Assembly: GCA_050084515.1 (NCBI GenBank)
Contig: CM114271.1
Span: 20,708,001-20,772,000, forward strand
Reading direction: 5' to 3'
Length of the DNA stretch: 64,000 nucleotides
From: Blasia pusilla
Lineage: Eukaryota
Positions 29,934 through 57,959 of this stretch are shown here, piece by piece (position 1 is the stretch's first letter; each line of letters begins with the position of its first letter). The notes under the pieces are model-generated. The model saw only the letters and a list, made by a program, of their open reading frames with translations. It was not told the DNA's origin and searched no databases. The translations under genes and the position numbers were made by a program.

Positions 29934-30050
<117 letters not shown>

Positions 30051-31708
30051 AGAAGATGAAGACGCCACAACAATTTAGGAGTATGAGCTCCATAAATACA
30101 CCTTCCCTCCACTGATGAGCGAATTCCGTTTCGCTTGATTATGAATGCTAGTAGAGAATGAATGTGAATAAGAGTAAGAGGGAGGTGTGAATTTTTTGCA
30201 GGAATTGGAGAATGGAGTTGATGGAACACTGATGGAGTGGTTGTTGATAGGAGTGCCGATCGAAGCCCTAGCCAAAAAGATCTACAGGAGCACAATTCCT
30301 CAATCGAGTGAAGACATGCAATACAAAAAAATAGCAGAATTAGAGCATGTGTGATCGTCACCTCACCTTAGATGATTTGATAATCGATGAAAATTATTGC
30401 TAACTGCTCGAGAAATCTACTTCACTTCTTAAACTCGAATGCTTCTCAGATGAACTGTGATTCTAGATATTTTCACTTGCATATCTACCAATTTATTTCC
30501 GGCTAAAATAGGCGGTTTCTTATCTTACCCAGTGTCACATTGAGTTGCTGTAAGAAAAATTTATTTTCTTGTGGAAGGTAAGGAACCTCCGTCATAGAGG
30601 GCCAGATGTTTCACTACGATCCATGAAAAGAAAGAGTTAGAGTCTTCTATTCGAGGGACTTCTAAAATAAAAGCAAGCTTCACTTCTTATAGAAATATAA
30701 AAAAACCTTCTTGCCACATATAGTAAGCCCCATGTTTCAATAATAGTATATATTTCCAAATGATGGTGGAAATTAGAAATAATTAACCAATTAACATGCC
30801 CATGTAAAAGTATTAAAAGTGATTTATAAATAAATAAATCTTTCAGTCTTTGATAATTTCCTCTATTCATTTTTCTTAAAAGAGTAGTAATATTTCACTC
30901 TTTTAAACAACTCCACTCCTCCATAAATTTTGAAATAACATTTTACTCTTCAACACAGGGTTAAATAATATAGGAGGTTGACAATAATGGGAAAACATAT
31001 CTACCCAATTTTTAGGGGCTACCACGGCCTACTAGACTAGTTGTCCCTCAACTTCTAAATAGAACATGTAAATCCATTTTCCTTTGCCACAACTCACGGG
31101 CAAGGAAAAAGGGTGGCTTTTAAATATCTTTTCTTTAACATGAAAGAGCTACTACAAATAGAAAATTAATAGCTACGGGTAGAAAGGAGGTTGAAATTGA
31201 CTTTCATGCGCTGCCCTCACCCAATTGGAATGCACAAGGGAGGCACATGTTTAAGAACTATGTGGGATATATATAACTCATGTGCTCATGAGGGACATAA
31301 TGATGACGTATATAAGTGCATTGCCAATGACATCATATATAAGACTCATAATAGGAGGATTTTTGAGAAAATGACCTAAAATATTATAGAAAGAATTAGA
31401 GGAAAAAAGGGGGAATGGGTGTTACATCTCAATTGCATGGAGACATGACTTGGGCATAAATTTTATCAACAACTTTGTTCCTTCATGTCAAAAATAGGTT
31501 TATTTCTTTAGAAACATATCATCAAACCTTTACAGTTGGTTCCCATATTTATATGACATTGATTTGATATTTTTTTTGGTTGTGCATACTATGTGAAATG
31601 TTAATTTAATGACGTCTTCTCCTAAAAAAAGATGAATAAATATATAGACCATTGGAATTTTCCCTCTTGCAAAAACCACTTGAGATATTTTTATTATTGA
31701 TGATCGCA

Positions 31709-31711
<3 letters not shown>

Positions 31712-31767
<56 letters not shown>
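31712..31767. repeat. Compound (TC)n(TA)n microsatellite
   Basis: Direct sequence. Confidence 0.95.
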
Positions 31768-34700
31768 GATATATCATTCAATCGAAGAGTGTTGGTGCGC
31801 CCTGCTTCCACTCTCACCTTTTGCACCAGCCATGCAGAAGGAGAGATCGTTGTAGGAAAACAATGTGGCTTTGTTGCTCATTGAGAGGATACACGATGGA
31901 TGGTTTTGGAATAATATGTTCAATTGCACATGGGAGAGTAACAAGAGTCCCCATCCAACTGCTAGAGATGGTTTGAGAGTGCTTCGAGATCCCTCAAGAA
32001 TACGGAAATCCATACGGAAAAAATATTAAATTCAAAATTTTAAATACATATTAGAAATGTCTTCTGGAAAATTCCCAAAAATTAGGTGAATTCTAAAAGA
32101 TAACTTTATACGTTATACTGAAGTGGCATACTTTTTAAGGGTTTTTTTCCCATCCTTAAGTTTAGGAATTTATTTTGTATTTTTAAAATAGGAAAATAAA
32201 TAATTTATTAGATTGATGGGGTTGCATTTCTCTTCCCGCCTTTCTATGTCTTGAGGTGGTAGCCGCTCGACGACGATCGAGTATCGTGCCGTGACACCCG
32301 TAGCCACAATGCGTCGCCAATTGTCGTGCCGTGCCGCTCGTGGCCGCATCGCACCGTCTCGATCGCGGAGCCGCTCCATCATTGGGGAGCAGATTGTGTT
32401 TTGTTGACTGAGGAGGGTATGCCGCCGAGTGCCGCATCTCATTTCTGAGTGACGTGCCGTTTGTAGCTGTTCCGTGCCGCCAATGCCGCACCGTACCGCT
32501 GGACCCGCACCGCACATCAAGGAGATTTGAGCATCGTTAGTACCAGAGGAATACGACTTGCAAGTTGGAGGACTATATCTTTACGACCAAGTTGGGATCA
32601 AGGTTTGAAATTTTTTAGGAGCAACATCGATATTTATTGTCAGGTTACCCATTCTGGTCTTTTTCCCTCCACGTGTTAGGGAATTCCGGGTATTGGGCAG
32701 TTATTTGGGGATATTGGATTTCGTGCGGATGTTGAGAGCATCATTGATGTATGGGTTTAGGGGGCATAGACCTGTGTGGGATGTCCAAAATTGAGGGTAT
32801 TTCTTGTCGATGAGATGATAGGAAAATAACTGATTTCCGCATCACGCCGCATGTTGCCGTAGAACACACGTCTCAATGAGAGAGTGTAGATTGAGTGCTG
32901 CATGTTAGATTGAGTGATTGAGTGATTACTTGCAAGGTTGAGAGTGATCACGTGAGAGGGGCATGAGCATCATCACGACGTCCTTTTGGGACTTTGAGAG
33001 GCGAGGTGGTGGACCTAAGAGGTGAGGGTTTACTCGGGGTGGTGAGAGGTTTCGAGGGTCTTCATGTGAGAGACCACCTTGATCTCCTTCTCTGTCATCT
33101 TCAAACGAGGAGGAGAGGGTAGAGGAGTGTGTTAGTGCATCACCACATAGAGTTAGTGGTCCTACCGCTTGGGAGTAGAGGACCGCGTAGGTTTCCGGGT
33201 GCTATAGGCACTATAGAGTTACACGACTTCATTGCAGAGTTTAGGAGTTGGTGTGACTCACAGCGGGGTAGGAACTCTAGAGAGTTCAACCCGTTTACAA
33301 CATGGTATGGAGGGGGCACCCATGGACGATTACCATGAGTTCTCTCATAGATATGCCCAGGAGATTGAGGTATGGAGACTCTATTATGACCCACACTATG
33401 TGTGATGGATAGAGCCATTCCCAAATGAGGAGGAGGAGTCAGGAGAGGCTACTTCCTCTTCCACCACTGATGTTTTAGGAGGGGTAACTCGCACTGGAGC
33501 AATTGCATCGTCCAGTTGGGTTCGTCCCAGGTTCAACCCCGTGGTTGAGTTCTTTGTTGAGTTACGGACGAGCTACTAGGGGGTATGGACCGAGGAGTTG
33601 CGGAACATCCATGACTTCTAGAGGCGCCTGAGTGAGAGTTTTCCTGAGGCCTACACTCGCTTGCGCCGATTGATTAACATCACTAAAGGGATGATAGAGT
33701 CCTAAACTATCCGGTGTCATGACCATACGGATTATGTCGTAGAGTATAGTGCTGGTAGAGGCCATTCCTTATGTAGGACCGTAGTGGCTTGGTAGAGATG
33801 CGGTTCCATACATAGGGTTGGGGGTTACTCACTTGGGGGTGACTTTCCCAGTAGGGCCCGCTCTTAGGTTGGAGGATATAAGGTGGCTTGCCCTCAAAGA
33901 ACGATCAATTCTTTGAGTTGAGCACATTTGCGTTGGGAGTTAGCCTTGGTAGTGAGTAGAGCTCTTGGCTATGGTGTTTCCAAGCCGACCTAGATTCTCC
34001 CATCGTGGAGTGGGTTTGGCTCGATTGTATGTGATTGTAAACGTGTTTTATGACAGTAGGTCTTTCACGGATTTCACTCAAAGAACTGGAGTAGATCGAT
34101 GGTAGCTTTGATTGTAGATCAGTAGGATCTGGTTAGGGCTGATTGTGTACTCAGCCGTGGATGTTCATGCTTGTTTCCTATGTTGGAGGTGTGAATCAAG
34201 TGCGTGGTTGGTTGGGAAAGAAGGGCCTTGCTGAGAGCTTTCCAACGCGCTGTAGATCGCCGGATTTCGTCAAGGGAGTTGGAAGTTATCAAGCATTGAA
34301 GATTCTGGTTCGTGTTCGACAGTTTTCTGATGTGGAGAGCTTGGAGTGCGGAAGCTCTGTTGAAGTTCATCCAGATCGGGTGAGAGGTTCCTATTGCTAC
34401 TTGTATTGTGATCTCATGTGAAGCTATCTGCTCGAGTGCGTGGAGCGTTATGGATTTTGCGTGCATGAAACTTGGCGGAAGCTATTTGTTGGATTTGTGG
34501 TTCTAGAGGTGTATGGACAACAAGTTTGTCTGATTTTTAGCTCGGAGTACGGAGCTCGGTTGTAGCTGAGTTTTTGTGGGGAGATAGCTATGGTGGTCAA
34601 TTGAATTCTGATCGAAACAAATTTGATTTCGGTCACGTATTTGTGAAGAAATTTCTGATCGAAATTTTGCGGATTAGCTCAAGGTCTGGCTATGGTGGAC

Positions 34701-35449
34701 AGCGGATCGGAGGGGCTGGTTGGTTGGTGACTCGTTCATTGTTGGAGAGGCTTCAAGGCAACTCGTGGTAGCTCGGGGTGAGTGGGCGTGAGAGGCGGAG
34801 TAAGGAGCAAGGAGCAAGCAAGCAAGCTTGCTTGCTTGGGGGTGAGGCAATTTTTGCAGGATTTAGGATTTGAGTTTTGCATACCTGGTCACCCATCTTT
34901 GGGCTATTCTGCCTGGAGGACGCTTAACTGCTGAGTTCTTAACTATGCCATTGTCTGCATTGTTGTAGCTCATTTGGTGCTGTTCGGAGAGGTGTTAGGC
35001 ACTTTATGCATCTCAGGTTATTGGTTGATGTACCTCTAGCGCATAGTACGGTGTAGCCTCTCCATGCAGGTGATATTTTCAGGTGCTGCGAGTTCGACTA
35101 GCACGTCATCGACCCGCGGCGGAGTAGCTATTGCGTTAGAATTGTGTGGTGGGTTTTGTGGATTCAGAGGGCACCACGTTTGGTGGATTGTGTTACCTTG
35201 ATTTCCATTTGCGATTGGAGGGTTGTCGTTGGATGTCTTGTGTTTGGATCCCCTCCATTGTGCTTCTTGCTTGCGCGCCCATTGTTAGGGTTGACGCTGA
35301 TTTCCATAGTAGTGTTACTCCTATGTGCTACTGATAGTGAGGCTGGAGTGATGACCAGTAGACCGTGGGAGTCTTCTTGTGGTGATGAGAAATTAGGTTG
35401 CCTACACCCATAGCTAGTAGAGCTACAATAGTAGAGCGACATCGACGTC

Positions 35450-38400
35450 AATTGGGTAATTTGGTGGTGGTGCGGCATCGGCGTTGGTCATCACGGAGCT
35501 GTCGGGTGGTCTGGTTGGGGACCGTGGTGCGGACAGTGGTGGTTTCACATGGAGTGGATTGAGGTATCGGCTACCTTTTCCACTTCCGACGGTTGATGAA
35601 GAGGAGGACGAGGGTGTTCCAAACACCGAGTCTTCTACGTTGTTATCGAGTGTTGCAGCTCCATTGATTTGGGATATGGACGGTGGATATGGGGCCATGA
35701 AGGGCCCACGACGATACTCGGGTGCAGTGGGCACCATTGAGTTGGAGGACTTCATGCAGGAGTTTGATACGTGGTGTGATATGTAGATGTTGCGGAACGC
35801 CACGTTGTTTACACCCTTCTTGGCTTGGAAGGGGTTATTTCAGCACTTGGAAGGACCACCCATGGATGATTACCATGAGTTTAGGAAGGACCATGTTGCT
35901 GAGATTGAGGCATGGAGACAATATTGGTCTCCAGGCTATGTGTCTATCACCCATGGTGGTATTGGTAGTAGTGCTCCTACTATGCCCCCAACCCGGCCTG
36001 AGTGGTGGCAGTACGAGCCGGAGTGGGGTACGGTGGAGGTACTAGTGGGGGTACTAGTGGAGGTACTAGTGCCCCACCATCGTTTAGCCCGGTTGCAGAG
36101 TTCTTCAAGAGGTTGAAGAAGAATTATCAAGGAGTGAAGACGGAGAAGTTGAGGAATCTTCAGGACTTTGAGCGAAAGACTGGTGAGAGTCTTCGTGAGG
36201 CATACACGCGTATGCGACGCTTGATTTCAATTACCCAGGGTGTGACTAAGGATCAGGCAGTCCAGTTTTGGTATGGGATCTTGGACAGAGATTTGCGCCG
36301 TAGGGTACGTGATGCTACTCTTATGAGTGATGATTCACCCACATTGACCCATGTGTTTGCTCTATCTGAGAAGATTGAGCTTAACATGGTGAAGGAGAGA
36401 GTGGTGACATCCGCATTCAGTAGGGATACAACTACTACTTCTCGTGTTCAACCGCCCACCTCACAGTCTCGTAGTAGTGGTGGTGGTAGTAGAAGTGGGA
36501 GTCGTGGGGGGTACACGCGACCTCAATCAAGTCCTAGAGGGACATTTGTGCAGAGACCATTGCCTTCATTTGCTGCCGGCAGGCGATCATGTTGGACATG
36601 TGGAGGTGATCATGTTAGGAAGTTTTGTCCCCAAGAGGATGGGAGACGGACTTTGGAGGATGGGCCTCGTCGGCCCCAACTCAGTGTGATCATTGCGGGA
36701 GACTAGGTCATCCTCGAGCGTTGCTTTGATCTTCATCCGAGTTGAGATCGGGCCGTGGCCGTGGTGGAGTAGCTCCAGAGGCCGAGGTGATAGAGGTGGT
36801 AGGGGTGGTAGAGGTGGACCAGTGGTTGGAGAGCCTACGGTGGCTACCCCTACCACTACGACAGTCACTATGGTCGCCAGGATTGAGCTTGATTGGAGCA
36901 GAAGTTGGCTACTATGGGTCGGGTATCTAGCGTAGATCAGGTTCGGGAGAGGGGCTTCCACCTCTTATGGAGGGATGATCTCTCTTATATGGCGAGTGCA
37001 AGACAAAGTTGAGGCATCACCTGCATTACGAGAGGAGCCACTCGGCGTCGAGCCACGTGGTGCTCTTGTGGAGTTGGACCCTGAGGGGTGAGGTTGGGAG
37101 GCGGCTAGGCTTCCCCAATCATTCTTGTTGTCGAGGTGCTTAGGACTCCATCCATGGTTCCTAAGCCAGCCTATTGAGCCGACAGTGGGGACTGAGGCAT
37201 CTACATCGCGTGTAGTAGACACGGATCGCAAACATCTAGTGTGATTGCGGATGGCAACCGGTGTTGGGATCCCCATTGTTTTCGCCACGGAGTCGATGGC
37301 TTTAGGAGTTGACTTAGCTCTGTATTTCAACTTGCAGCCACCTTGTGTGAACGTGGGGGTGTTACTGCTACACGTGTTGAGGTGAATGAGGATGTTGCGG
37401 TGGAGCGACCCTCTATGTCAGGAGTAGCATTGAGTACCAGTGCTACTTGGCAGGCAGCGGCGGCGAAGATGGATGCATTACCCGGCCCGGCCAGCCATTG
37501 ATCGTGAGAGGCTTACACTGGTGTATGTATGTTGGACAACCGGAGTGGGATCTTCCGATTGGTGAGTCCTACAGGCAGTGTATAGACCAGATAGAGTCTT
37601 GTTAGACTCAGGTGCCCGACCTTTGATGTTGGGAAAGGCGGCATGTATTGGTTTGGGTATTCGGAGGTCACGGCCTTGAGCCTTGCCCATTCGATTCAAA
37701 CATCACTTGGAGGAGCCAATGATAGGTCTCAATTCATGACACGGGAGAAGTTTTCATGCAGTTGAGACCAGATCATGCGACCGATAGCTCCCGGTTGGGA
37801 GTATCTGACGGTAGTCACATCACCAAGTCGTATGATGTACTAGTTGGAGGAGCGATGATTGTACCCGATGGGTTTTCAGATGGATTCTTCGGATCGAGAC
37901 AGCGTCTTATAGACCAGGTTGGCAGTCGAGGATGGACGTATGAGCCAAGTTCTGTGAGATTTATTTCTGGGGCTCGACCAGAGGGTCTTCCCAACAAAGT
38001 GTTAGCATCTGTGGCTGGTTTTAGTGGAGTAGTCACTTGGCCAAGAGACTTTTGGAGGGTAATGTTTCTACTATGGATTCTCTCGCATGAGAAGGTAGAG
38101 GAGGTCCCTATTTTTGCAGTGGCATCCTCATCGTTGGATGTGCCACTTTGGAGTTCAGGCGGTGCACTACGGCAGAGGTCGATCACCTAGTGCGAGGAGA
38201 GGCTTGGTGTGAGGGTCATATACCTCACGAGGAAGAGGAGGCCCCACGGTGGACTCCTACTGCCCAGCTTGATTAGGTTATCCCTTTGGATACTACACCC
38301 ATTGTATGGCAGTATCCGCCGGAGGGCATTTGTGTGTTAGATCTCTTTGGTGGGATTAGCACTGGTTTGGCGGCAGTGTTGCAGGCCGGTATTCATGTGC

Positions 38401-41400
38401 GGAGATACGTGTATGTGGAGCGAGATGAGACGGCCCAAAGAGTCTCATCCCGACATATTGGTCAGTTGATGCGGAGATATCCTGAGTTGTTGCCGCCATT
38501 AGCTATTCCTGGGTACCAATGTGCTTTACCATCACACATTGCATTGTTAGGAGTGCAGGACCTTGAGAGGGTTGGTCCTGTGGATTTGGTGATTGCTGGA
38601 TGGCCATGTCAGGGTCATACACGTGCTGGTCGTGGTGAGGGATTACATGACCCTAGGTCTCGATTGTTTTGGGAGATGTTACGGGTGTTACGACATCTTC
38701 AGGTTCATCAAGCACGTGCTCTAGCTTACATTCTGGAGAATGTTCCATTGTTGGGTGACACTCGGACCCGGATGATGGCGAGTGTTCATGAGGTGCGGTC
38801 TTGGATTGGACCAGCGGTGTTGTTGGATGCAGCGCGAGTTGGCTCGCGTGCACATCGTCCACGCTTGTGGTGGACAAACTTGTTGCCTAGGGAGGTTCTA
38901 CGTCGAGCATATGATGCAAAGGCGGCGGGATCCGCCTTCAAAGTGGATAGTATCTTGAATCTTGGCGACTTTCTCAAGTGGTGAGGGTTATTGATCGGTC
39001 ACCCATGGCGGTGGTGAACCGTGTGGGCCGACCTAGGATGGCACTACCCACATTTGTGAGTTTTCCGCGTCACATGCCTACAGGGGAAGGTGGTCGGGGC
39101 TTGTATGGGATTCTCATGTGCGGCAGTTGGTGGAGCCTAACGTTGATGAGAGAGAGCGTGCGATGGGATTTACTCTTGGCGTGGCGGTTGCTTCTATTTA
39201 CGAGGCTTCACGACGTCATGTGTTGGGTGAGGCCATGGACCTGAATTGTTTGACTTGGATTTTGAGTCTTGGTATGGCCAAGGCGTCGACTTCGGACTAT
39301 GTCGTGGGTCTTCCACCCTTGTAATGAGCTCGATGGCTACCGGGACGGTAGAGGCATCGGTCAGCGCAGGAGAGTAGTATTTTGCATCCTTGGAGTAAAT
39401 GGGATGTAATGGTTGGGCATGTGGAGTTGGTTGCTCATCTGGTGGAGGAGTTATTTGCTCGGATGATGGTGTAGCTAAGGGTGTATCATCTTGTGAGGGG
39501 GTTGCGAGCGACCAATGGCATCGTCCTCTCCCTCTAGTATGCCAGTGGAGGAGACTTGGGAGCCATTACTTGGGCCCAAGCTTACGGGGGAGGTGAGAAA
39601 CGACGCTGACACGGTTCCTACGTGCTTATAGGAGTTGTTTTGTCTTTAGCATGAAGGAGTTGGGTTCTCTGGTTGGACCGGTATACGGATTGATTTGGCT
39701 AGTGATACGCCAATCTTCCGTCGTCCCTACCGATATAGTGATATGGAGAGGGACCTGATTGAGTAGGACGTTGGACCTTTTGGAGGCTGGATTAGTGGAG
39801 TTGTCGCATGGAGAGTATGCATCGCCACTATCATGCACGCTAAAAGGATATGCATGGCAACTACACGGATAGGCGGATGTGTGGAGATTACCGCCCTATC
39901 AATCGGCAAACCAAGGCCGATAGGTATGCCATGCCTACACGAGGAGATCTTTGATGTGGTGGGACAGCAAAGATTTTCAGTACTTTGGATCTTGAGGCAG
40001 GATACCATCAATTGCCGATTTGGGAGAGTGACAAGGCCAAGACAACATTTTGGGGTGTCAACTCTCATGGCAAGGGGATTGTTTGTACAAGTGGAAATTC
40101 TTACCCTTTGGGTTGAAGAATGCACCTGCCGAGTTTCAAAGAGTGATGGACAGGATCCTAGCAAGGTTGGATTTTGTTCGGTGTTACATTGATGATATCT
40201 TGGTGTTCAGTAATACGGTGGAAGAGCATCAGATACATTTGCAGATGGTGTTTGAGCGGTTGAAAGCTCATGGTCTACGTTTGCATCCAGGAAAGTGTAA
40301 GTTCTTCCATGAGGATGTTGAGTACTTGGGTCATGTGATATCTCCAGGTGGTTTGGGAGTTCAGCAAGCAAAGGTGGAGGCTATTGCACTTATTCCGCGT
40401 CGGGTAGATGTAAGTAGAGTTCGAGCATTCATGGGATTGGCGAACTACTATCGGAGGTATGTGAAGGGATTTATTGCTATGGCAAAGCCTTTGAACCAAT
40501 TGCTGAAATCAGACCAAGAGTGGCACTGGGGAGATGATCAGGAGAGAGCTTTTGGGGAGCTTAAGGCCCAGTTGGTGGCGGCGCCTATCTTGAGGAGACC
40601 TATCAGAGGGCGCCCATTTCAGTTACACACTGATTGGAGTAGGTTGGGACTTGGAGTGGTGTTGACACAACATGATGATGAGCACATGGAGTTTGTGGTG
40701 GCCTATGCAAGTCGTTCGAATAATGCAATGAGTCACGCGCTATAGTTCATATGAGGGAGAGTGCTTGGCAATAGTGTGGGTGTGGCACACTTTAGGTGTT
40801 ACTTGTTTGGCACACAGTTTACCCTTGTTTGATCACCGGCCGCTCAAGTGGTTGATGGAGTCGGACAAACTTACAGGGAAGCTTGCACGATGGGCTCTTA
40901 TCTTAGAGGAGTATGACTTCCGGGTGGTACATAGACTGGAGTTGCCAACCTTGATCTTTGATGGGTTGAGTAGGAACCCATGTACTAGCCAAGAGGATAC
41001 AACTGGGGCTAGATGGCATGGCAAGGTTGATGAGGAGATGGTGCCAGGTTGGCATGCATCCGCCTTTTATGTTGGTTAGGGGTGGACTCTAGTATGGAGG
41101 ACCACATGATATCTTACTCTAGTCGAGAGTAGATGGCGACCTTCGATCCTAAGGTTGGAGATGGTGGTACGGATCAAGGTGATATTCATGATGATGCGTT
41201 GGTGTTGGAGTTCCTACGGACCAGTAGGGTGCCAGGCATAGTGAGTGCCAAGGAGCGAGACCGTGTTCTTCAACGTGCTAAGAGGTATAGATTGGAGGGA
41301 ACACATATTCTCCCATGTGGGAGGATGTTAGAAATGCAGTAGTGCCACATTTGGCTCAGAGAGAGCGCATTGTGCGACATGCCCATGAGGAGTTGGGACA

Positions 41401-42605
41401 TTTTGGGATAAAGCGTGCGTATAGCTTACTCCTTGGCGTATTGGTGGCGTGGCATGCATACTCAGTGCAGCGATTGGTGTCACGTTGTATGGTTTGTGAC
41501 CGGGTGAGGGCATCATTTAATGCCCCTACACCACAATTACACCCCTTGCCTATTATGGGGTTGGGTTACCGTTGGAGTGTGGACTTTTTGGGACCGTTAC
41601 CATTGGTATGCGACATCATTGATATGTGTTGGTGATGGTGGAGCACTTCTCCAAGTGGATTGAGTTGGTGGCATTACCGGACAAGGCAAGTGAGGAACGG
41701 CGTATGCGTTTTGGATAGAGTGCTTAGTCATTTTGGTGCAATGGTGAAGTCTTGACCGACCGAGTCTGAGTTTGGTGGTGAGTTTTAGGTCTTGTGTGAC
41801 AAGGCATTGATTGATCATCGGACCACGTCTCGAGATCATCGAGGCGGATGGTTTGGTGGCGTGTGGTTCAGGCGGTGAAGAGGGCATTGCGCAAGTATGG
41901 CCTCTGAAGGGCATCTTAGGAGGATATTCGGTTGCCATGGTTAGCCATGGGGTATAGGTTCAGTCGCCAAGCATCCTTGGCTTCCTTCTCACCTTATTTT
42001 CTGTTATACGGCCGTGATCCAGACTTGCCAGCAACAATTCGTCGGGAGTCTAGTGAGGTGGTGGACCTTGATGACCCAGAGATGTGGATGAGGGTGTGTT
42101 CTCAACGGGCGGAGCTCTTTCGGAGAGTTATGCCAACAGCCTTTGAGAATCTTGCCATTGCTCAACACAGGGATACGTTGCGGTATGCAACCATTCGGGG
42201 TGGGGGCTATCAACCATCGATTCGTAGGTTCCATGTGGGGGACTATGTCTATTTGCAGCAGATTGCCCCGACAACGTTGGATGTGACGGCAGCGCACTAT
42301 TTTACGAGTGCGTGAGGTATTAGCTTCTAGAGTTCTCATGTTGGAGGGTCGTGATGGAGTTGTTTGGAAGGACCATGTGCATAATTGTGCGCCATGTCAT
42401 CTTCCAAATGTGGATGGTATCTTATTGACCCAAGCTTAGCCATGATACGTGCTAGCTTGAGGTGCATGTTGTGTGGGTCTGCTTTGTGTAACGCACCCGT
42501 ATGTTGGTGTGTGATCGGTGTTCTAGGGGTTGGCACATGATGTGTTTGACTCACGTTTGGATGTTGTTCCTCTTTGGAAGGTGGGTTTGTCCTCGATATA
42601 CTTAG
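35450..42605 (+). pseudogene. gag-pol polyprotein of element A
   Basis: Gag (FQHLEGPPMDDYHEF; knuckle CWTCGGDHVRKFC), protease VLLDSGA (~37600), RT LPFGLKNAPAEFQR..YIDD (40100-40200), RNase H FQLHTDWS, integrase HHCC (HAHEELGHFG..CMVC) with core WSVDF, and a degenerate PHD at ~42463-42597. Confidence 0.9.
38325..39240 (+). pseudogene. DNMT3-like C5-cytosine DNA methyltransferase domain within the element A polyprotein
   Basis: Motif I VLDLFGGISTG, II YVERD, IV DLVIAGWPCQG, VI YILENV, VIII RAHRPRLWWTNL, IX ERERAMGF and X RHVLGEAM, in linear order. Confidence 0.9.
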
Positions 42606-44837
42606 GAGAGGTAGATGACTTGATCTTTGCATGATATGGATTACGGATGTGCGACTAACGACGGGCAACCTAGCACCGGCCTTCGATTCGGGCACCCAAG
42701 AAGGTGTATAGCATGTAGTAGATGTATAGGGCTACAGGAGTTAGAGGGACCTAACCGCCTTGATTAGGGGGCGAGTTGTGGTACACTTGCGTTTGTGGAT
42801 ACTCTCGTCTATGTTATGTATGTATGTGAGTATGGTATGTCGATGATGTATGTTGTATGGCGATGGGGATTCGCACGACAATCATCATGACCATACGGAT
42901 TATGTCGTAGAGTATAGTCTTTGGTAGAGGCCATTCCTTATGTAGGACCGTAGTGGCTTGGTAGAGATGCGGTTCCATACATAGGGTTGGGGGTTACTCA
43001 CTTGGGGTGACTTTCCCAATAGGGCCCGCTCTTAGGTTGGAGGATATAAGGTGGCTTGCCCTCAAAGAAACGATTAGTTCTTTGAGTTGAGCCTGCTTGC
43101 GTTGGGAGTTAGCCTTGGTAGTGAGTAGAGCTCTTGGCTATGGTGTTTCCCGCAAGCTTCGACCTAGATTCTCCCATCGTGGAGTGGGTTTGGCTCGATT
43201 GTATGTGATTGTAAACGTGTTTTATGACAGTAGGTCTTTCACGGATTTCAAGTTGTGGTACACTTGCGTTTGTGGATACTCTCGTCTATGTTATGTATGT
43301 ATGTGAGTATGGTATGTCAGCGATGTATGTTGTATGACGATGGGGATTCGCACGACACCCGTCATACGCGATGCTGGATGGAATCCTACAAACACGGTGA
43401 TATGGGTGCGAGAGGGGGTGCTTCTTATGAACACCTCACCTACATTGAGGGATGTTTTTAGGACCGCCAAGAATATTGAGTGCAACATGGTGGAGGAGAG
43501 CGTAGCCACCATGAGTTCTGGGCGAGATCAGTTACGATTGCCTACACCACCAGTGCAGCAACGTGGATTCCGCGATAGGTCTGTGGCACCACGAGCTCAG
43601 GGAGGATACCAGGAGGCCATGCCACAAAGACCTGCGCCTTCATATGCGGCTCAAAAGTAGCCGCCTATGATGATTTGTTGGGCATGTGGTGAAGCCCATC
43701 ATTAGCGTGATTGCACTCGTCAAGGTCATGGACGCGTGCCTCAACATGGAGGAGGAGATGGTGCTGCACTTGGAGGTTATTGGCGTGATTATTGTTAGAG
43801 GAATGGTCACACACGCGCCATGTGTTTCAGCTTATACCAGCTTATGTCCGGACCGAGGGCCAAAGAGGGCACGAAAGTGAGTTGCCGGTCCGGGTTTGCC
43901 TAGAGATCCTGCACTAGGTGGTCACGTTGGGAGACGAGGAGCTAGATTCGCTCAAGGGGGTCGTGGAGGAGGTAGAGTCCCACCATCTAGACACCTCGAG
44001 GGAGACGCCAAGCAGGAGGTTGGGATGACTGCTCAGACAGAACAACTACAACACCAGATTTCTGCTATGGCATTGAGGCTACCCAATGCCGGATCCGTGG
44101 CATCGACGTCTTATGGAGCAACCAGAAATATGGAGGATCATGGTTGGATATGCGGGGTTGCCCAAATGGAGGCCACCGCAATTGTTACGTGTGGAGCAAC
44201 CGCAGAGTTGGATCCACACGAGGGGAAGCCAGCAAGCCGACTAGGCTTCCTCAATCTTCACATTGTCTTAGGCGATGAGGACCCCATCGACGGGTCATGC
44301 TTAGAGTTCCCAGAGAGTTGGTGATACTATTGGTGTGCACACATGGAAGCGAGTGCAATGACTCCTATTGCTAATGCTCAGGAGGAGCATATGTCAAGCA
44401 CATTGTTGGGGGTGGTCACTATTGTGTACCGCGCTCCTTTATTTTCTGCTTCCGATGTTATGATGTTGGAAGGTACGCCTGCCGAGGTTTTTTGGCTGGC
44501 CGCTACGTTATGTGATCGTGGATTTGGTGTTCCTACGTCACACTCAAGGGTGATTGTAGAGGAGGTGATGTATCTGCCCTTGGAGCTTATGCTCGGGCCG
44601 TCCACGTCAGATTCATGGCAGGCTGTGGCTGCTAGGATGGCGGAGATTCCCGTTAGACCCATGATAGAATATGCCATGGCTTCTCTTGGTGTTGTGTTGC
44701 TGGATAATCGGGGAGCGGTCTTCCACTTGGTGAGTCCAGGACGTAGAGTTTTTAGTCCGCAGCGTGTCCTATTGGATTCGGGAGCGCAACCCCTGATGTT
44801 GGGGAAAGCGACATTAAAAGTTGGGCTTGACAAGAGC

Positions 44838-45480
44838 TGTCGTGCGCATACAAATTGCTGCATAACATACATCGCTGTCACCAAACACACACACAAACAT
44901 ACACAATCCCAAGCTAACTCATGACATCCAAACAACGAGACAAGAAGTACCAAAATATCTCCAATAAATCAAGATCCAATCTCTCTCAACACCATATCTC
45001 TCAAATGTGTGCACTCCCATATGTCTTTCTCAATGTCAAACCAAACCCACTCTCCTAATGAGAGGCTTGGGTTACACAGAAAAGGCAAGCAAGACCATAG
45101 CTCTGCTGCCTCATGCCAAGAGGTTCAACAATGAAAGAATGAGCTCTCAAGCTCTCTCTCCTTGAGGTATACCCCTCCCCTCTCCCAAGCTCTCTCCATG
45201 GTAACCTATGCTCCCAAGTCACCTCCTTGGCTCTTGACCTGATGTAGGAGGTCAAAGGCCACTTACCAAAAATATAAAGTCGACCATATACTCAAAAGGA
45301 TACTTACCTAAAATAATAAGTTTCTCAATATGGCTCCAAATCAACCGAAACGAAGGGGAAACATGCTCTCTCAGGTTTCCCGGGGCCTCAGCAAGTCATC
45401 ATCGACCTCGTGAGCCTGTCCTCCACTACTAGCAAAGGCGCTCTACTAGATCTCACCGATATATCCTAAAAGACGTGATA
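44838..45480 (-). mobile_element. Solo A+B terminal-repeat unit of the element B family, with 4-bp TSD GAGC
   Basis: Highly similar to 53568-54209. GAGC at 44834-44837 and 45481-45484. Host codons GLTRA|DVERC rejoin across the insertion. Confidence 0.92.
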
Positions 45481-48400
45481 GAGCCGACGTGGAGCGTTGT
45501 TCATTCCGGATATAGACATCCTTGGATGGAGCAAGTACCACACAATATATCACCCAACAGGAGGTCGTGATGAGGATTCGTTTGAGACATCCTACAGATG
45601 AGTCCGTGGTGCAAGCCAAGGCGATAGTGACCGATGTAGAGTCCTACGACGTCTTGGTTGGTGGAGCAATGTTGTACCCTATGGGATTTTCCCTATATTA
45701 CTGGAAGGAGTCAGCGTCCTACAAAAAAGGATGGTGGTCCAGTGATGGACGAATTTGTCCATTATTCGTTCGATTCATAGGTGGAGTGATCGAGCGACGG
45801 CCACTAGAGATGGCGACTTTATCAATATTTAGCAACGCCATCAGGTGGCCTTCTAATTTGATTGAGGGCATTGTCATTGCATCAGGGCATTTCCGGGCCG
45901 ATCCATGCATGAGGGCATCGTCTAATTTGATCCATGGATCGGCCGGACAATGTTGTTGGATGCGGCGAGTGTAGATTCACGAGCACATCGCCCGCGTCTT
46001 TGGTGGACAACCTTGGTGCCACATGAGGTTTTTCCGAGGGCATGCGTGAGAGTGGAGTGCCCCTCCCATTTTTTGGTGGATTCTATTATGGATCCAAGTC
46101 GTCGATCACAGGGAATACGACACGATGATCGACCTTCTTTGACTATGGTCAACAAGATTGGCATGCCACGAGCTGCCTTTCCCACATTGGTGAGTTTTCC
46201 CGCTTCCTATGCATTCAAGGAGGCCGGGCCTGGCTTGGTTTGGGATGACCAGGTATAGCGGTTGGTGGAGCCCAACGCTGATGAGCGAGAGCGAGCGATG
46301 GGATTCCCCACAGGAGTGTCGGCACTACCGTCACTATGAGAGGCATCACGACATCATGTCTTAGGTCAGGCAATGGACCTGAACTGCTTGATATGGATTT
46401 TCAACTTAGGAGTAGCTAAGCAAGGTCATTTGAGGATGCAACAGATCATACCTGTTGCGTTGGTGAGCCCAATGCCTACCGAGACGGTTGAGGGAGTGGC
46501 TGGGGGCGAGACCTCAAGAGCTCAATACACCAGGGGCATGGTTGCACAAAAATGGACAAGTCCTTCCTTAGGATGGACATGGACGGATACACCAGTTCCT
46601 TAGGAGTTATAGGAGTTTTTTTTGCATTCAGGATGTATGATTTGGGTAAGGTGAAGGGTCGAGGGATCCACATTGAGTTGTTGAGTGACACGCCGATCTT
46701 CTGGTATAGGATCCTACAGGTACAGTGTCATGGAGAGGGCTCTTATTCACAGTGGGAGCTAGGACTTGGTTGGAGCAAGACTAGTGAAGATGTTGCATGG
46801 AGAGTATGCATCTGCCACTATCATGCCCGCCAAGAAGGATGTGCATGGCAATTGGACGGATAGGCAAATGTGTGGAGATTACCGACCTATCAATCGGCAG
46901 ACAAAGTTTGATAGGTATGCCATGCCCACGCCTTAGGAGATCTTTGATGCTATTGGGCATGCAAAGGTCTTTAATTCTTTAGATCTTTGAGCGAGATACC
47001 ATCAACTGCCTATCTGATTGGAGGACATATAGAAGATGATATTTTGGGGCATCAATCCTCAAGGGAAGGATTGCTTATACTAGTGGCGGTTCTTACTATT
47101 TGGGTTAAAGAACGCCCCGTGTGAGTTTCAGAGGGTCATGGATAGGATCTTGGCAGGTCTGGATTTTGCTAGGTGTTATATATATGACATCGTAGTCTTT
47201 AGCGCCAAGGTTGAGGAGCATGAGCGACACTAGAGGAGGTATTCCGACAATTGCAGTTACATGGGTTGAAGCTACATCCAGACAAGTGCAAGTTCTTCTA
47301 TGACCAGATTGAGTACCTAGGTCATACGATATACCTAGGGGGCCTTGGTGTGCAGCTGACGAAAATAGAGGCCATTTCAAGCATTCCACGCCCTACAAAT
47401 GTGAGTCGAGTTTGAACATTCATGGGATTGGCAAACTTCTATCGACGACACGTCAAGGGTTTCAGTTTGATTGCGAAACCGCTTATCAAGGTGGATCAAG
47501 AGTGGCATTGGGGGATGAGGAGGAGAGAGCATTTTAGCTGCTCAAGGACAGATTGATATCCGCGCCCATATTGATCGAGGAAACTGATCAGAGGGCCTCC
47601 TTTCCAGTTGCATACCGATTGGAGCATGTTGGGGCTTGGAGCCATGCTCACCCAACATGATGATGATGGTAGAGAGTTCGTGGTGGCTTATGCTAGTTGC
47701 TCAAACAACGCTGCAGAGGCGAAGTATAGCTTGTATGAGGGTGAGTGCTTGGCTGTGGTCTGGGTTGTTGCACATTTCATGTGTTATCTATTCAAGAACC
47801 CCTTTACCATCATTACAGATCATCAACCACTTAAGTGGTTGATTGAGTCTGACTTAAGTGGTTGATGGAGGTTTCATCAGGGAGACTATGTCTACTTGCA
47901 AAAGATGGCATCCACGACGTTGGATGTGACTATAGGGCGCACCATCTTGAGAGTGCGTGAGATTTTTCCATCTTGTGTTCTCTTATTGGAGGGACCATGT
48001 GCATAATTGTGCGCCATGCCACCTTCCTAACATTGATGGTATAGTTGATTCGAGCTTAGCAGTAGTTCCTATAGGCTTACGATGTATGTTGTGCGGTTCC
48101 GCTTGTGGTGCAGCCACTATGATAGTTTGTGATGATTGTTCAAGAGGATGGCATATGGCATGTTTGACGCCACCTCTCACTAGGGTTCCTCAGGGACGAT
48201 GGAAGTGTCCCAGATATACATAGAGTAGGTAGTTCTAGATTCCGACTTGTGTTTGTGACATGGATGACAAGAAGGCGACCAATTATGGGTCTCGAACCCC
48301 GATGTATGGCTCAAAGTTGGATCCAAATAGGATAAAAATATTTCTAGCATGGACTCCACACTTATGGACAATCTCCATGGTAACAAACAAGGCAACCAGA

Positions 48401-50142
48401 AGCTACATGACGTATGATGCCACTACAAGATATTTGATCTTACACAACTATCCTAAATTTGCCCCTCCGTTCTTCAAGGTATGGCATGCTCATATCCCAT
48501 TTAAATTTCAAGATGCCAAATCTTTAAGGAGGTTGACTGAGACAGAAAATGCCTACGAAGGTGAACAAGAAGAAGGTCCCACTATTTGTCTCCAAAGATG
48601 AATTGAACGCACACTTGGATAGCCCTGTTTGCCCAAATATTCTTCAAGTAGAGTTCAAGAAGTCGTGGCTCAAGTGGCCAGATCATGCAATTGGTCATTT
48701 GCAAGGAAAGTGGGAGAAGATGAGTGGAAGAAGGATCCGGTCTTGTTCAATGGCCTTACAAGTTATGAAGACCTCTTGGCAAAGAAAAGGAAGTTAGTGA
48801 GCAACGTATTTGTCAAGCTCAAAGTTGCGAAGTTGATGAAGGGCATGGAGGTTCATTATGGTGATGTGGAGTGCAAAATGAAAAATCCCCATCGATTTAG
48901 TCAAAACGAATAAGGGTTCATACTCTACCAAACTTTGGAAGTATGGGAATATATCCACAATATGAACCTCAGCCATCATCTTCTTGGCCGCATAGAGGAG
49001 ATCAAGGAGTGGTTGTATCACGAAAATATTGGTCATGCAAAGACCAACAATATGGATTGTCAAGAAACCTTAGAGGGCTACTATCTTCTTTGGATGAATA
49101 GAGAAAAAAACTTCTTTGACCAAAGAGGAGATAGATGACAGAAATGAAAATGAAGGGCGAGCCCAATTTGGGGAGAAAACTTTGAGGACATAAGAGATGT
49201 CTTGAATGACCTCAATGTAGGTCGTAATATGAGTTTTGATGGGCTAGAGTGATTTTCGATCGCGGTGTACAAGCGACCTTGTTCCTAGAACCTTTCGTGG
49301 GGAAAATGCTCCAAAAAATAGTTAGGTTATATCTCGTCTATCATAGTTCTAGATTTTCATAAAGAATTTCCAACGCACTTTTTATTTGGAAGCCGAATTT
49401 AATATTTTGAAGGGAAAGCACCAAAAATTGTGTGAGGAACACGAGAGACTAAAGAGAGAGATGGAGAGGATCATGAAAAAATCAATTGCACATATGAGCT
49501 CTCGAGAAGAAAAATATTTATAAAGGCAAACCGTATGGCAAGGGAGGAGGACATACCAGTCCATCATGGCAAGATGACAAAATGACAAAAAGAAATGGAT
49601 AAATTACTATGATGGAGAGCAAGGGGCAACGTGGGAGAACTCGTCCCCAAGACAACTCTACCTGAGGGTCATCTCGTGAAAGAGGTTGATATGATCTTAT
49701 TTCAACCTTTTGGCAAGTTGTGGCTGTCATCTCTACGCACAATATGGGACAATGCAATGGATCCAAACGTTGCCAACTATACTTCTTTGATGTTGGTACC
49801 AACACCTCTTAATCCGAGTACACAAGAGCAAGATATACTTGATTGGATGATGGCAATCATTATAGCCAAAGAATTGGCCCAAATGCATGATTTGCTTCAA
49901 CTTGATTGCCGTAGAAGATTGTTGCGTGATAGACACATGTGAAGCATGTTATTGGCATCCATATTGTCTTCAAAAGGCCATGTTATTATTACACAAATGT
50001 CTGACTTGTGAACAATCTTGATCAAGAAGATTATATCCCCTTTTTGGGAGATCTTTCCGTGCACCTGATAGTAATGCATCACCTTTGTATCGTAAGAGAA
50101 CCCAAGAGTAAGACAATTTCACTTTCAGTTTGGGATATCATA

Positions 50143-51060
50143 GCGCCCACCACCTAGACGCGTCAAGGGAGACGCCGGGTGTGAGGCTAGGATGACTACT
50201 CAGATACATCAGCTACAAGAGCAGATTTCCGCTATGGCATTGAGATTACCCGATGCCGGATCCGTGGCATCGACATCATATGGAGCAGCCAAAGATATGG
50301 AGAATCCTAGTTGGATGTGCGGGGTTACCGTGATGGAGGCCGCGGTAGTTGTGACGCGTGGAGTAGCCGCAGAGTTGGATCCACAGTGAGGGAAAGCGAG
50401 GAAACATACTAGGCTTTCTTCAGTCTTTCACGTTGTCCGAGGCAATGAGGACCCCATCGATGGGTCTTGATCAGACTTCCTAGAGAGTTGGTGATGTTAT
50501 TGATGTGCACGCACGAAGGGCGATGGGAGAAGCGAGTGCGATGACTCCTATTGCTCATGCTCAGGAGGGGCATGTATCGAGCACGTTGTTGGGGGCGGCC
50601 ATCGTTATGCATGGAGTTTGAGTTCTTGCATCACGTTCAGAGGTGATTGCAGAGAAGATGATGGACCTGCCCTTGGAGCGGATGCTGGGGCCATCCACGT
50701 GAGATTCATGGCAAGCTGCGGCTGCTAGGATGGCAGAGATGCCCACTAGACCCGCGATAGAGCGTGCCATGGTTTCTCCTGGTGTTGTATTGCTGGATAA
50801 CCGGGGAGAGGTCTTCCAATTGGTGAGTCTCGGAGATAGAGCTTTTAGTCCGCAGCGCATCTTGTTGGAGTTAACGTCCTACATACAAGGATGGCAGTCA
50901 GATGATGGGCGCCTTATCTCATTACCCGTTCGATTCACAGGTGCAGTGGTTAAGCGACGGCCAGGAGAGATGGCGAACTTAGCAGCATTTAGCAATGCCA
51001 TCACTTGGCCTAGTGATTTGATTGAGGGACATGTCCATGCAGAGGATACTCCCGTGTGGA
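50143..51060 (+). mobile_element. Additional internal fragment (gag end/protease region) of the element B family
   Basis: QIHQLQEQISAMALRLPDAGSVASTSYGA and PGVVLLDNRGEVFQLVS match ORFs 59735-60454 and 59474-59707; internal deletions are present. Confidence 0.85.
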
Positions 51061-52647
51061 GCGAGATGTTTGCACGAAGTGCATATAAATTGGGTGGTTA
51101 ACGCAGAAATCTCACGTCAACAAAGAATTGATCGGGCAAGTCAATCGTGGTTGATCTGCTTCATTGACATGTACGATCGAGGAGAGCTTATTCACAAAAT
51201 TTCCATAGATCTCCAAAATCGAGAGGTGGAAAACTTTTTCTTTGTGCAAGGGTTACATCCACAAGAAGTTCGGGATGCCTTTAACACAACTCGACAACTT
51301 GTCCTAAAAAATCATCAAAATCCATTGATAGATAATCTTTTCTTGAGGAGACTCGAATTGATTTTTCCACATTTCTTATGGCAAGATATTCCTCAAAGGA
51401 TGGAAGGGGGCTATTCACGAATATACCATTACCCTCGTCCAATGCAACAGGAAATTTTCAACATTGAGGGATGTTGTCAACACGGGAAACATAAGACATA
51501 GCTGATGGTGAAACCAATGTTGTATTGGATAGGACTATTCCTTGTGGAGGGGAAAAACACATTATTAGAGCTAGGGAAAGAGTTGGTGAGACCTCTGAAC
51601 CGGTGTAACATATATCCGATCATGAATCATATTAGATAGAATGAGTTTGTGGTTATATCTCTGTAATATATATAAGCATGAGGTTCCTCTTAATCCACAG
51701 GTTGTTGGGTACTACCCATTTTTATAAAAAATATATATAATTTTCTTCTTGAAAGTGACTTAGTTCTACAATCTTATGGACAAATGCCACACCCCTTGAG
51801 AAAAGTTCAATGCATGTTTTTGCATGATGTTCTATGGATGGGGATTTTGAGTTGGAGGGTAATTAGGAGTTGGAAGATTAAGAGTTGAATTACCTTCAAA
51901 ATAGAAATTTCAACCTTATTGATTCCTACTATTATAGGCATTTGCTAACTTTGAAGACATGTGAATGTGAACTTGTTAGGAAAACTGTTCATGAAGTTTT
52001 CTAAGTTTTCTGTAAGGTTATCCTTGGGTAAGGTGGAAATGTGCATTTGATTAAAAAGAATTATATCTCTATTTACTATAATTAAATAATTTTGCATATT
52101 TCCAAAAAAATCAATTTATATTTTACAAGGAGATAAAATTTATTAGTTTCCTTGAATTATATTCTTAACTTTAACCTTTGTACCTTTATTAAACTGAAAA
52201 GTAGAACAAGCATAAGGATTTAATCATTAAAATATTATAAATTATTTAAAAATAAAATTTTATGAAGTACTATAATTTATTTCATATTTTGGCAAGAAAT
52301 AGTAAAAGAAAATGTGAGAGTGTGTCCAAACAAGAAATCTTCTTTAAAATTCTGAAAAATATCTACTTGAAATCTTAAACTAAATGTGTGACTGGGAAAT
52401 ATCCTTCAAAAAACATGTCCACATTTTTTTAAAACTCTTAAAGTCAAGGGCATGGTTAATTCTAATCTTATTTTTATGATTTCTTGTGCAGTTTTCCTAA
52501 CCTTTCGAGAATTTATTTAAAATTTCATATTTTCCAATATATTTTTAGTACTTTTGATGGTCTATTGATCCGTTGTAGGGGTATAGTTTCTTTCTAACTA
52601 GTCTTTATTAGGTTCTAACATTATGAAGCCTTTTAGAATTACAAATT

Positions 52648-54529: not shown

Positions 54530-54665
54530 TGTACATCTGGGACACATCCATCGTCCCCAAGGAACCCTAGTGAGAGGTGGCGTCAGACATGCCATATGCC
54601 AACCTCTCAAACAACCATCACAGACTAGCATCGTGGCTGCACCACGGGCAGAACCACACAACATA
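54530..54665 (-). other. PHD finger at the integrase C-terminus
   Basis: CMLC..LVCDGCLRGWHMACLTPPLTRVPWGRWMCPRC is a complete Cys4-His-Cys3 pattern. Confidence 0.92.
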
Positions 54666-57600: not shown

Positions 57601-57959
57601 GTAGGACTCTCTGGCGCGGGTATCGGTGGTTGCTATGGTGCAACCCCGTCTTGAACAACAACGCTCGGCTGCTCTTTTGCAGCCAACTGCAAACTTTGAT
57701 CTCCTCCATATGCAGTGCCCGAAACCACGCTCGATGTTGTGGCTATCATCTCCTCGCGTACATGCAAAACATCCCAAGAAGTCCAAGGGTGTCTCTCCCA
57801 ATCTCCCCTAGTGCGTAGATCTCCTCGGGTTCGCCCCCAGCCAGTGCCTCCACCGTCTCGGTAGGCATGGGGCTCACCAACGCAACCGTTGTGATTTGTC
57901 GCGATCTCATACGACGCTGCTCAGCCACTCCCAAGCTGAGGATCCATGTCAAGCAGTTC

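Follow-up and report, generated by a model that had tools for sequence, protein, structure and literature searches.

Repeats, limits and coding capacity of the element

The window, a 64,000-nucleotide stretch of Blasia pusilla DNA, contains a retroelement (E) whose terminal repeats are split, reading in order A1, internal region, G-rich tract, B1, A2 and B2. A repeat search and blastn of the window against itself recovered the A1...B1-A2-B2 arrangement claimed in the preliminary description, with 95.4% identity between A1 (33717–34076) and A2 (42885–43250; 368 aligned bases, E value 1e-165) and 96.3% between B1 (42774–42880) and B2 (43251–43357; 107 bases, E value 5e-45). On the + strand, the full A1 feature spans 33715–34076, and its start, TGTCATG (the left integrase end), is the insertion boundary. 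B1 is the internal copy of the 3'-terminal repeat and ends in GCACGACA; A2, for which limits of 42883–43250 are also given, is the 3' copy of A; and the CA end of B2, the terminal B copy, is the right integrase end. The same searches of the window found no B copy next to A1.

The outer limits of E were fixed without using the repeats, by flank alignment to a paralogous empty site in a related element, M. In the window self-blastn, the left flank (33024–33699) matched 61701–60989 on the minus strand at 81%, and the right flank (43414–44500) matched 60929–59844 at 79%. These two matches adjoin each other in M, so that 33715–43357 represents one clean insertion. E begins with TG (33715–33716) and ends with CA (43356–43357), and the TG..CA ends proposed earlier were thus borne out at the empty-site boundaries. 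The 4-bp flanks, CCGG (33711–33714, +) and CCCG (43358–43361, +), were read from the sequence and the empty-site alignment as the two copies of a target duplication with one mismatch. Another copy, from sequencing run X12, had a different flank at E position 33715. E is decayed, its A copies being 5% diverged and its pol carrying many stops.

E and a solo repeat unit both lie within an older relative, H (32244–48289, +), which survives as pieces 32244–33714, 43358–44837 and 45480–48289 and is collinear with M at 79–83% identity; no terminal repeats belonging to H were found in the window. The solo unit (44838–45478, −) is an A-B unit of the M family with the 4-bp duplication GAGC, 85.8% identical to 53568–54208 and matched by an empty site in M. 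M itself (53568–63814, −) belongs to a second family, has the target duplication ACCC and is again arranged as A...B-A-B, with minus-strand repeats A1 63814–63300, B1 54340–54213, A2 54208–53694 and B2 53695–53568 (A copies 96.1% identical, B copies 89%).

Judged from its sequence, the E-type pol order is protease, C5 cytosine DNA methyltransferase (C5-DNMT), reverse transcriptase (RT), RNase H, DDE integrase and PHD finger, and by tblastn the pol domains map in Ty3/gypsy order (protease-RT-RNase H-integrase) on E, H and M. All the coding features of E are on the + strand. A gag remnant (36002–36706) gave a weak Pfam match to Retrotrans_gag (E value 0.0021, under the curated cut-off). The broken protease region (37170–37888) aligned by tblastn with residues 6–245 of the Marchantia protein P0005 and is labelled by its position in pol, without a Pfam match. 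Next comes a broken C5-DNMT domain (38277–39270; PF00145 E value 5e-10 at 38277–38984; tblastn to P0005 and P0024), and precomputed Pfam lists place PF00145 also in the relatives P0001, P0005, P0016 and P0024. The broken RT and RNase H (39557–41079) matched RVT_1 (E value 3e-25), RT_RNaseH_2 and RT_RNaseH, and the protein nearest to this region was Marchantia polymorpha P0001, at 84% identity.

The integrase, with its H2C2 zinc domain, DDE core and C-terminal PHD finger (41291–42596), is heavily broken in E. It matched Integrase_H2C2 (E value 7e-5) and showed 42–46% tblastn identity over ~340 residues, PHD end included, to P0024 and P0009. The sister element M gave rve at 39.1 bits (cut-off 32.6), H2C2, a PHD finger above cut-off and RNase H, in agreement with the HHCC/DDE integrase first assigned to E. 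On these sequence grounds, E is classed as a Ty3/gypsy-type LTR retrotransposon, now decayed, of the streptophyte clade with KnitGypsy-Dnmt3.

The A...B-A-B layout is identical to that described for DIRS, Ngaro and PAT elements, in which a tyrosine recombinase would insert closed circular cDNA with B1-A2 as the bridging template, and SymbioDIRS-Dnmt3 has been described in part of one report as A-coding region-B-A-B (de Mendoza 2018, PMC5890265). We regard membership of that group as scarcely credible for E. A Pfam scan of 20 ORFs of E and M found no tyrosine recombinase (PF00589), and the Pfam domains precomputed for 120 relatives did not include one either; M has rve, H2C2 and PHD instead, and the RT clusters with Gypsy-type proteins. 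The TG..CA ends and 4-bp duplications also argue against it, DIRS elements not being known to make a target duplication.

Priming site, polypurine tract and joints

By sequence reading, no TGG stands directly at the A1 boundary of E, where the following bases are CTCAAAGAACTGG, and the preliminary description was right that no tRNA-type primer-binding site (PBS) follows A1. There is instead a putative self-priming PBS, ACTCAAAGAA (34076–34085, +), whose bases at the A1 end are the perfect 10-nt complement of a segment within A1, TTCTTTGAGT (33909–33918, +), predicted to be the RNA 5' end and self-primer. A TATA-like box, GATATAAG (33872–33879, +), lies 33 nt upstream of this segment inside A1. 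A self-primer of this length was reached by only 1 of 300 shuffles.

Perfect self-primer complements of 10–17 nt were present in 10 of 14 elements, each reached by at most 1 in 300 shuffles; the other four (L010, L074, L049 and L066) lacked a significant match. The TATA box was 30–34 nt upstream of the self-primer in 9/14. Complementarity was retained with differing sequences in M, L012, L019 and others, and this variation between families suggests that the pairing is maintained by compensatory change. With its TATA box and, ~32 nt downstream, a segment complementary to the bases after A1, A therefore reads as U3-R-U5 with predicted self-priming of the Tf1/sushi type.

A polypurine tract (PPT), ATTAGGGGGCG (42763–42773, +), lies immediately 5' of B1. 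A G-run adjoins the start of B1 in 25 of 27 related elements, so plus-strand DNA should begin at the B start. Between B1 and A2 is a joint, J (42881–42884, +), consisting in E of the 2-nt spacer AT followed by CA where relatives have TG; it amounts to the right end of the element, 2 nt and the left end, a near-palindrome. Across the related elements the consensus is CGACA-NN-TGTCATG, with a 2-nt spacer in 23/27, and other copies from sequencing runs had the same left end and a J with a GT spacer. The ends that face outward in the element (TGTCATG...CGACA) thus face each other inside it, at B1|A2. A2 opens with TA, CA or AG, and not with TG, in E, M and five relatives, so a copy's own A2 does not in every case template the outer TG of its A1.

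The A2|B2 boundary (43250/43251) looks like an LTR-LTR circle junction, because A ends at the base before the PBS and B starts at the base after the polypurine tract. Read by eye, this joint differs by 1–2 nt among close relatives while the spacing of J is constant: L039 carries one additional T, resembling the base with which the PBS begins, and L045 one additional G, resembling the base with which the tract ends. This variation lies between diverged subfamilies and could reflect ordinary divergence instead of fresh joining in each cycle.

The A2|B2 joint might alternatively be inherited, with RNA reading through A2 into B2 and being copied by some other priming, B then being a second terminal redundancy. 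The joint was exact, by eye, in 11 of ~21 relatives of one subclade, as such inheritance would have it. We nevertheless consider this unlikely: a B start set by the polypurine tract (25/27) and an A end set by the PBS are expected for cDNA ends and not for an inherited joint, and, on the standard model, a minus strand begun at the predicted self-primer would transfer to the R of A2 and leave B2 uncopied.

The layout across the clade

We examined 63 metagenome loci, from 80 fetched. A...B-A-B was complete in 13 of them, and 15 more had B-x-B after pol. Together with E and M, all 15 full-length elements carried A...B-A-B; none had B at the 5' side, and none had two identical LTRs, one per end, the 5' end having A only and the 3' end B-A-B. 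Six loci of a separate clade, run through the same script as a method control, had ordinary LTRs and a TGGTATCAGAGC PBS.

The 13 full metagenome elements come from two deep subclades. With the exception of the long-branch L028, the layout-bearing loci fell into one 68-row RT-RNase H clade (SH-aLRT 100), which includes E, M and H and proteins of Marchantia, Calypogeia, Closterium and Klebsormidium nitens; the last are represented by P0036 and P0043, which may belong to KnitGypsy-Dnmt3 itself. Exact 4-bp duplications flanked M, the solo unit, L012, L061 and L073 and, by eye, L065 and L067, and duplications with one mismatch flanked E, L010, L019 and L023; this length agrees with the 4–5 bp of Ty3/gypsy elements. 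All copies examined are decayed.

E is old and broken, with diverged A copies and many pol stops, and might thus be a rearranged ordinary element with a B-A or A-B LTR that lost its 5' B and gained an extra B through deletion or duplication after insertion. We hold this to be very improbable. The layout recurs in M, in the 13 full metagenome elements of both subclades and, according to the literature, in K. nitens; host sequence breaks off precisely where A begins and continues precisely where B stops; and a 5' B was found in 0/15 elements. A-BAB as the consensus, the point that the preliminary description wanted tested, was upheld, and complete AB repeats at both ends with a PBS were not encountered among the full elements. 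As far as these sequences go, members of E's clade are normally integrated as A...B-A-B.

Over a deep clade of plants and algae, the layout breaks the rule of two identical LTRs for DDE-integrase retroelements, and E bears on the origin of the DIRS-type layout without a tyrosine recombinase. With the split layout clade-wide, LTR finders that pair identical ends would be expected to miss such elements or misplace their bounds.

A possible integration route and comparison with known systems

The explanation that we favour, and think somewhat probable as a whole, is that E is a self-primed Gypsy element whose joined cDNA is opened by integrase at J. Reverse transcription would yield a linear cDNA, B-J-A-PBS-internal-PPT-B-J-A, the two blunt ends of which (A end and B start) would join as in a 2-LTR circle to give the A2|B2 joint. 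Integrase would then nick both CA sites of the PBS-side J, leaving recessed CA-OH ends with 2-nt 5' overhangs; cutting of palindromic LTR-LTR junctions by retroviral integrases is described in parts of two reports (PMC1180852 and PMC1905944). The inserted product would be A-internal-B-J-A-B, and joining could precede or follow cleavage.

What seems unusual is the substrate for integration. The preliminary description had proposed both non-canonical priming and unusual strand transfer; priming without a tRNA stood, as a predicted case of the known Tf1/sushi-type kind, whereas unusual strand transfer did not, since nothing in the sequence seems to require any.

Opening of a joined circle at either J also predicts the permutation A-B-J-A-internal-B, which was seen in 0/15 full elements, and this one-sidedness is unexplained by the joined-circle model. 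A rival route needs no closed circle: acting on linear cDNA, integrase would cut at J in the left LTR and insert the A start together with the end of the released B fragment, and host end-joining would seal the A end to the B start; or an end-to-end template switch by RT would add B. The product would be identical, the two half-sites would already lie side by side, and the one-sided outcome may fit if the left LTR alone is cut. Single-B forms (A-internal-B) were found at 10 distinct loci, without extra 5' repeats and with exact 4-bp duplications in two of the four checked, and would fit cutting of J in linear cDNA; recombination between B1 and B2 explains them equally well. Cutting of the right LTR would again yield the unseen permutation. 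We judge the linear route possible, if rather unlikely.

Building on the favoured route through joined cDNA, we advance tentatively, as a real possibility that falls short of probable, the stronger proposal that this whole streptophyte clade of Klebsormidium, liverworts and relatives integrates obligatorily from head-to-tail cDNA of the 2-LTR-circle type, through a palindromic att joint, CA-NN-TG, with A2|B2 carried into every copy. If so, the long-rejected 'circle as integration precursor' would be the main route of a natural lineage, and a Gypsy element would have converged both with DIRS in layout and with IS elements in circle-junction logic.

A...B-A-B on a Gypsy-type element is already in print, for KnitGypsy-Dnmt3 of K. 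nitens, which the Fig. 4c legend of de Mendoza 2018 (PMC5890265) describes as a DIRS-like repeat arrangement with Gypsy-like domains. As described there (PMC5890265), it shares with E the A-coding-B-A-B repeats and a Gypsy-type pol enclosing a Dnmt3-like C5 methyltransferase; it comes from K. nitens, whereas the host of E is liverwort-like, the nearest protein being from Marchantia (84%). Section 9 and the Fig. 4 legend of that paper give no ends, duplications, priming site or mechanism, on which its supplements may say more (PMC5890265). New relative to the legend remark are the candidate self-primer in A, the tract before B, the palindromic J with its 2-nt spacer and the circle-type internal junction, which together suggest a concrete hypothesis for the integration substrate.

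Troyka, which the preliminary description had named as having such termini, proved a mistaken parallel. It is, like E's, a Gypsy-like lineage with unusual termini, but its LTRs are ordinary, its termini are CG..CG, its duplications measure 3 bp and its known hosts are all animals (Kojima 2025, PMC12440569); the passages on Troyka in that paper make no mention of split repeats. With TG..CA ends and 4-bp duplications, E was rejected as a Troyka element (PMC12440569).

The DIRS, Ngaro and PAT elements resemble E in their split direct repeats (A1...B1-A2-B2) and in probably needing joined or circular cDNA, but have a tyrosine recombinase and no DDE integrase, whereas in E's clade the integrase is of the rve type, the ends are TG..CA and the duplications 4 bp long. 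Tf1/sushi and Tcn1 chromoviruses have two identical LTRs, the 3' one immediately preceded by the polypurine tract, and carry a chromodomain, not a PHD finger. Like E, they have a DDE-type integrase, and their PBS is complementary to their own RNA 5' end, as predicted for E, and not to a tRNA (Neumann et al. 2019, PMC6317226, in part). E differs in the B segment between the tract and A2 and in having integrase ends internal to the reverse-transcription unit.

In retroviruses, it is the circle junction that forms the palindromic joint; its spacer is 4 nt, and the circles are side products. These 2-LTR circles resemble E in having a palindromic joint of integrase ends that, according to parts of three reports, a DDE integrase can cleave internally (PMC1180852, PMC1905944 and PMC4372172). 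In E, by contrast, the palindrome is internal to the LTR unit and its spacer is 2 nt, and a circle-type A|B junction lies within the integrated copy.

Repeats, ends and coding content of the nested element

Two repeat-finding tools recovered the split direct repeats A1...B1-A2-B2 of the preliminary description in E, a decayed Gypsy-type element at 33715–43357 (+). The A copies (A1, 33717–34076; A2, 42885–43250) were 95.4% identical over 368 aligned bases and the B copies (B1, 42774–42880; B2, 43251–43357) 96.3% identical over 107 bases. From 5' to 3', A1 is followed by the internal region, by a G-rich tract and then by B1, A2 and B2; reading the sequence at the 5' end revealed no B copy adjoining A1. 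The flanks of E (33024–33699 and 43414–44500) matched adjacent minus-strand stretches of a related element, at 81% and 79% respectively; host sequence ended at 33714 and picked up again at 43358 in this alignment, identifying E as a clean nested insertion whose outer ends are set independently of its repeats. E begins with TG and ends with CA, as had been described before and as the host alignment bears out, and its 4-bp flanks are CCGG and CCCG. Inspection of boundary sequences found TGG absent from the A1 boundary in E, in a second element of the window, M, and in relatives, in agreement with the earlier claim that no tRNA-type primer-binding site (PBS) follows A1.

Every reading frame of E was broken, as were the ORFs of all 12 full metagenome elements described below, and all copies examined are decayed. 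In Pfam searches, E matched RVT_1, Integrase_H2C2, two models for RNase H and a C5 cytosine methyltransferase (E-value 5e-10), with a further, weak match to gag. By tblastn with four related proteins, E, M and the host of E, an older relative termed H, shared one domain order: protease, DNMT, RT, RNase H, integrase, PHD. The methyltransferase domain lay between protease and RT in each (E, 38277–39270; M, 58870–57917; H, 45935–46423). The DDE-type integrase reported earlier was upheld by H2C2 on E and by rve, which, with PHD, scored above Pfam cut-offs on M; no tyrosine recombinase was found by Pfam on E and M ORFs or in the domain lists of relatives. The closest proteins to E were from Marchantia polymorpha (84% identity) and Calypogeia fissa, with Klebsormidium nitens and Closterium proteins as more distant relatives; among related proteins, many carried rve with a C-terminal PHD finger and some carried PF00145. 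The methyltransferase domain, in print for a Klebsormidium retrotransposon, is here in a genome with liverwort proteins nearest.

On the plus-strand elements (32000–52000), T exceeded A and GC skew ranged from +0.18 to +0.29, a pattern mirrored on minus-strand M (54000–64000); this strong sense-strand asymmetry of E, H and M may be either the composition native to the family or a result of one-sided C-to-T decay. Elsewhere in the window, tandem repeats in an 18-bp register occupied the window start (1–324), and a dinucleotide-type microsatellite at 29937–30056 was repeated in inverted orientation at 31712–31750.

Split repeats across the clade

Element M (63814–53568, minus strand) had the same repeat order as E, with A copies 96% and B copies 89% identical and an exact ACCC duplication. 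Contigs from public runs indicated that the E family is highly repeated, with other copies sharing the left end at 33715. A joint leading from 43357 back to 33715 was rejected as proof of circles, since the B|A joint in other copies explains it most simply. In another family copy, represented by a contig from the public sequencing run X14, the contig left the element at 40762 for sequence that begins, in reverse complement, with the B end, which suggests that a second element is nested there in opposite orientation. Also in the window, 50146–51053 was 80–90% identical to the 5' (gag-side) part of H/M-family elements, of which it is a further partial copy, and 13576–14310 (−) gave a weak RT-like tblastn match to the proteins also mapped on E, M and H (28% identity, E-value 1e-20) and is probably an unrelated, older retroelement remnant.

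Scanning metagenomes with nine aligned polyproteins gave 80 loci; 17 contigs of 7 kb or less were left out and 63 loci were examined. The full A...B-A-B arrangement was present in 13 of these (L067 and L070 being one element); in a further 15 loci, of which two duplicate full ones, a B-x-B pair followed closely on pol. The remainder comprised two loci with an A pair only, six with ordinary LTRs and 27 with no repeat, many through lack of flanking sequence. In the six ordinary elements the LTRs began with TG, a polypurine tract immediately preceded the LTR and the PBS read TGGTATCAGAGC; their recovery confirms that the script does detect normal LTRs.

In an RT–RNase H tree of 86 rows, from which 10 loci with less than 70% cover were left out, one clade (SH-aLRT 100) held all 15 full split elements and 9/10 partial ones, together with Marchantia, Calypogeia, Closterium and K. 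nitens proteins. A separate, equally supported clade (100) comprised the six ordinary elements, and L028 was a long branch outside the split-repeat clade. The preliminary description had allowed that most copies might carry complete AB repeats at both ends plus a PBS; every full element was instead split, and, judged from repeats and tree together, A...B-A-B is the rule in the clade of E.

Fine anatomy and a proposed integration route

Across 27 elements, the ends TGTCATG...C(G/A)ACA formed short inverted repeats, and 4-bp duplications were exact in seven cases and had one mismatch in four; the termini of L023, L045, L065 and L067 were placed by eye, the automatic end-finding regular expression having misplaced them. 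At the B1|A2 joint, J, a right end and a left end faced each other across 2 nt, as CGACA-NN-TGTCATG and in many cases as the palindrome GACAGCTGTC. This pattern was matched by a regular expression in 23/27 elements, and the remaining four, viewed by eye, had CA-to-TA changes or a misplaced search window; J of another copy, on a public-run contig, had a GT spacer. A G run, read as the polypurine tract, adjoined the B1 start in 25 of the 27. Some 10–20 nt upstream of the polypurine tract, the liverwort-type subclade had a conserved small inverted repeat, GTTAGAGGGACCTAAC (E, 42740–42755; M, 54388–54373; also L010, L012, L007 and L028), which may form a hairpin.

Bases directly after A1 were perfectly complementary, over 10–17 nt, to a mid-A segment in 10 of 14 elements, a match length reached by at most 1/300 shuffles. 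Because families differ in the sequences that pair, it is compensatory change that keeps them complementary. With a TATA box 30–34 nt upstream of the self-primer segment in 9/14 elements, the pattern bears the signature of self-priming of the Tf1/sushi type, which we predict for these elements and which has been predicted for the plant Tcn1 clade too (PMC6317226).

By eye, the other repeat boundary, A2|B2, differed by 1–2 nt among close relatives, with an extra T in L039 (like the first PBS base) and an extra G in L045 (like the last polypurine-tract base), while J spacing was constant throughout these relatives.

We propose that A behaves as U3-R-U5 with the PBS directly after it and that plus-strand synthesis would begin with the first B base, which would make B-J-A the reverse-transcription unit and B-J-A-PBS-internal-PPT-B-J-A (PPT, polypurine tract) the linear cDNA. 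At A2|B2 the last base upstream of the PBS meets the first base downstream of the polypurine tract; these are the two predicted cDNA ends, and A2|B2 would thus be a circle-type LTR–LTR junction, with the inserted ends of the element located at J. Because the cDNA ends would be joined at A2|B2 and the inserted ends would lie at J, we infer from these sequences that the DDE integrase opens head-to-tail-joined cDNA at J. Two nicks, one 3' of each J CA site and 2 bp apart, would leave recessed CA-OH ends with 2-nt overhangs, the ends that retroviral integrases normally make. The 1–2 nt variation at A2|B2 with fixed J spacing would be a supporting detail for the joined-cDNA model. Retroviral integrases have been reported to cut palindromic LTR–LTR junctions (PMC1180852, PMC1905944).

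Some points do not fit. A circle opened at the other J should yield A-B-J-A-internal-B, which was seen in 0/15 full elements. At ten distinct loci, a lone B lay between the polypurine tract and the flank (PPT-B|flank). Of four such loci checked, two had an exact 4-bp duplication around an 'A-internal-B' element without a second A (L024, TGCA, A start 4276, B end 14066; L005, TACA, A start 5969, B end 17071); the flanks of L013 showed no matching duplication, and L027 yielded no A start. These single-B forms may have arisen directly, by cutting at J sites, or through B1 × B2 recombination. The solo A-B unit inside H (44838–45478; duplication GAGC, with the empty site present in M) is equally ambiguous in origin, between J cutting and recombination.

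Comparison with described elements

The Troyka group, whose termini had been suggested earlier as a match, was ruled out as the identity of E, since Troyka, as described by Kojima 2025 (PMC12440569), is unrelated in ends, duplication length and hosts. In the main texts of openly accessible papers, no description of the split layout with a DDE integrase was found besides de Mendoza 2018 (PMC5890265). There, the Fig. 4c legend gives the K. nitens element KnitGypsy-Dnmt3 a DIRS-like repeat arrangement with Gypsy-like domains, and the main-text account is without ends, priming site or mechanism. E is a liverwort-type member of this kind, already in print but barely characterised, and the anatomy and the proposed integration model are new as far as that same literature shows.
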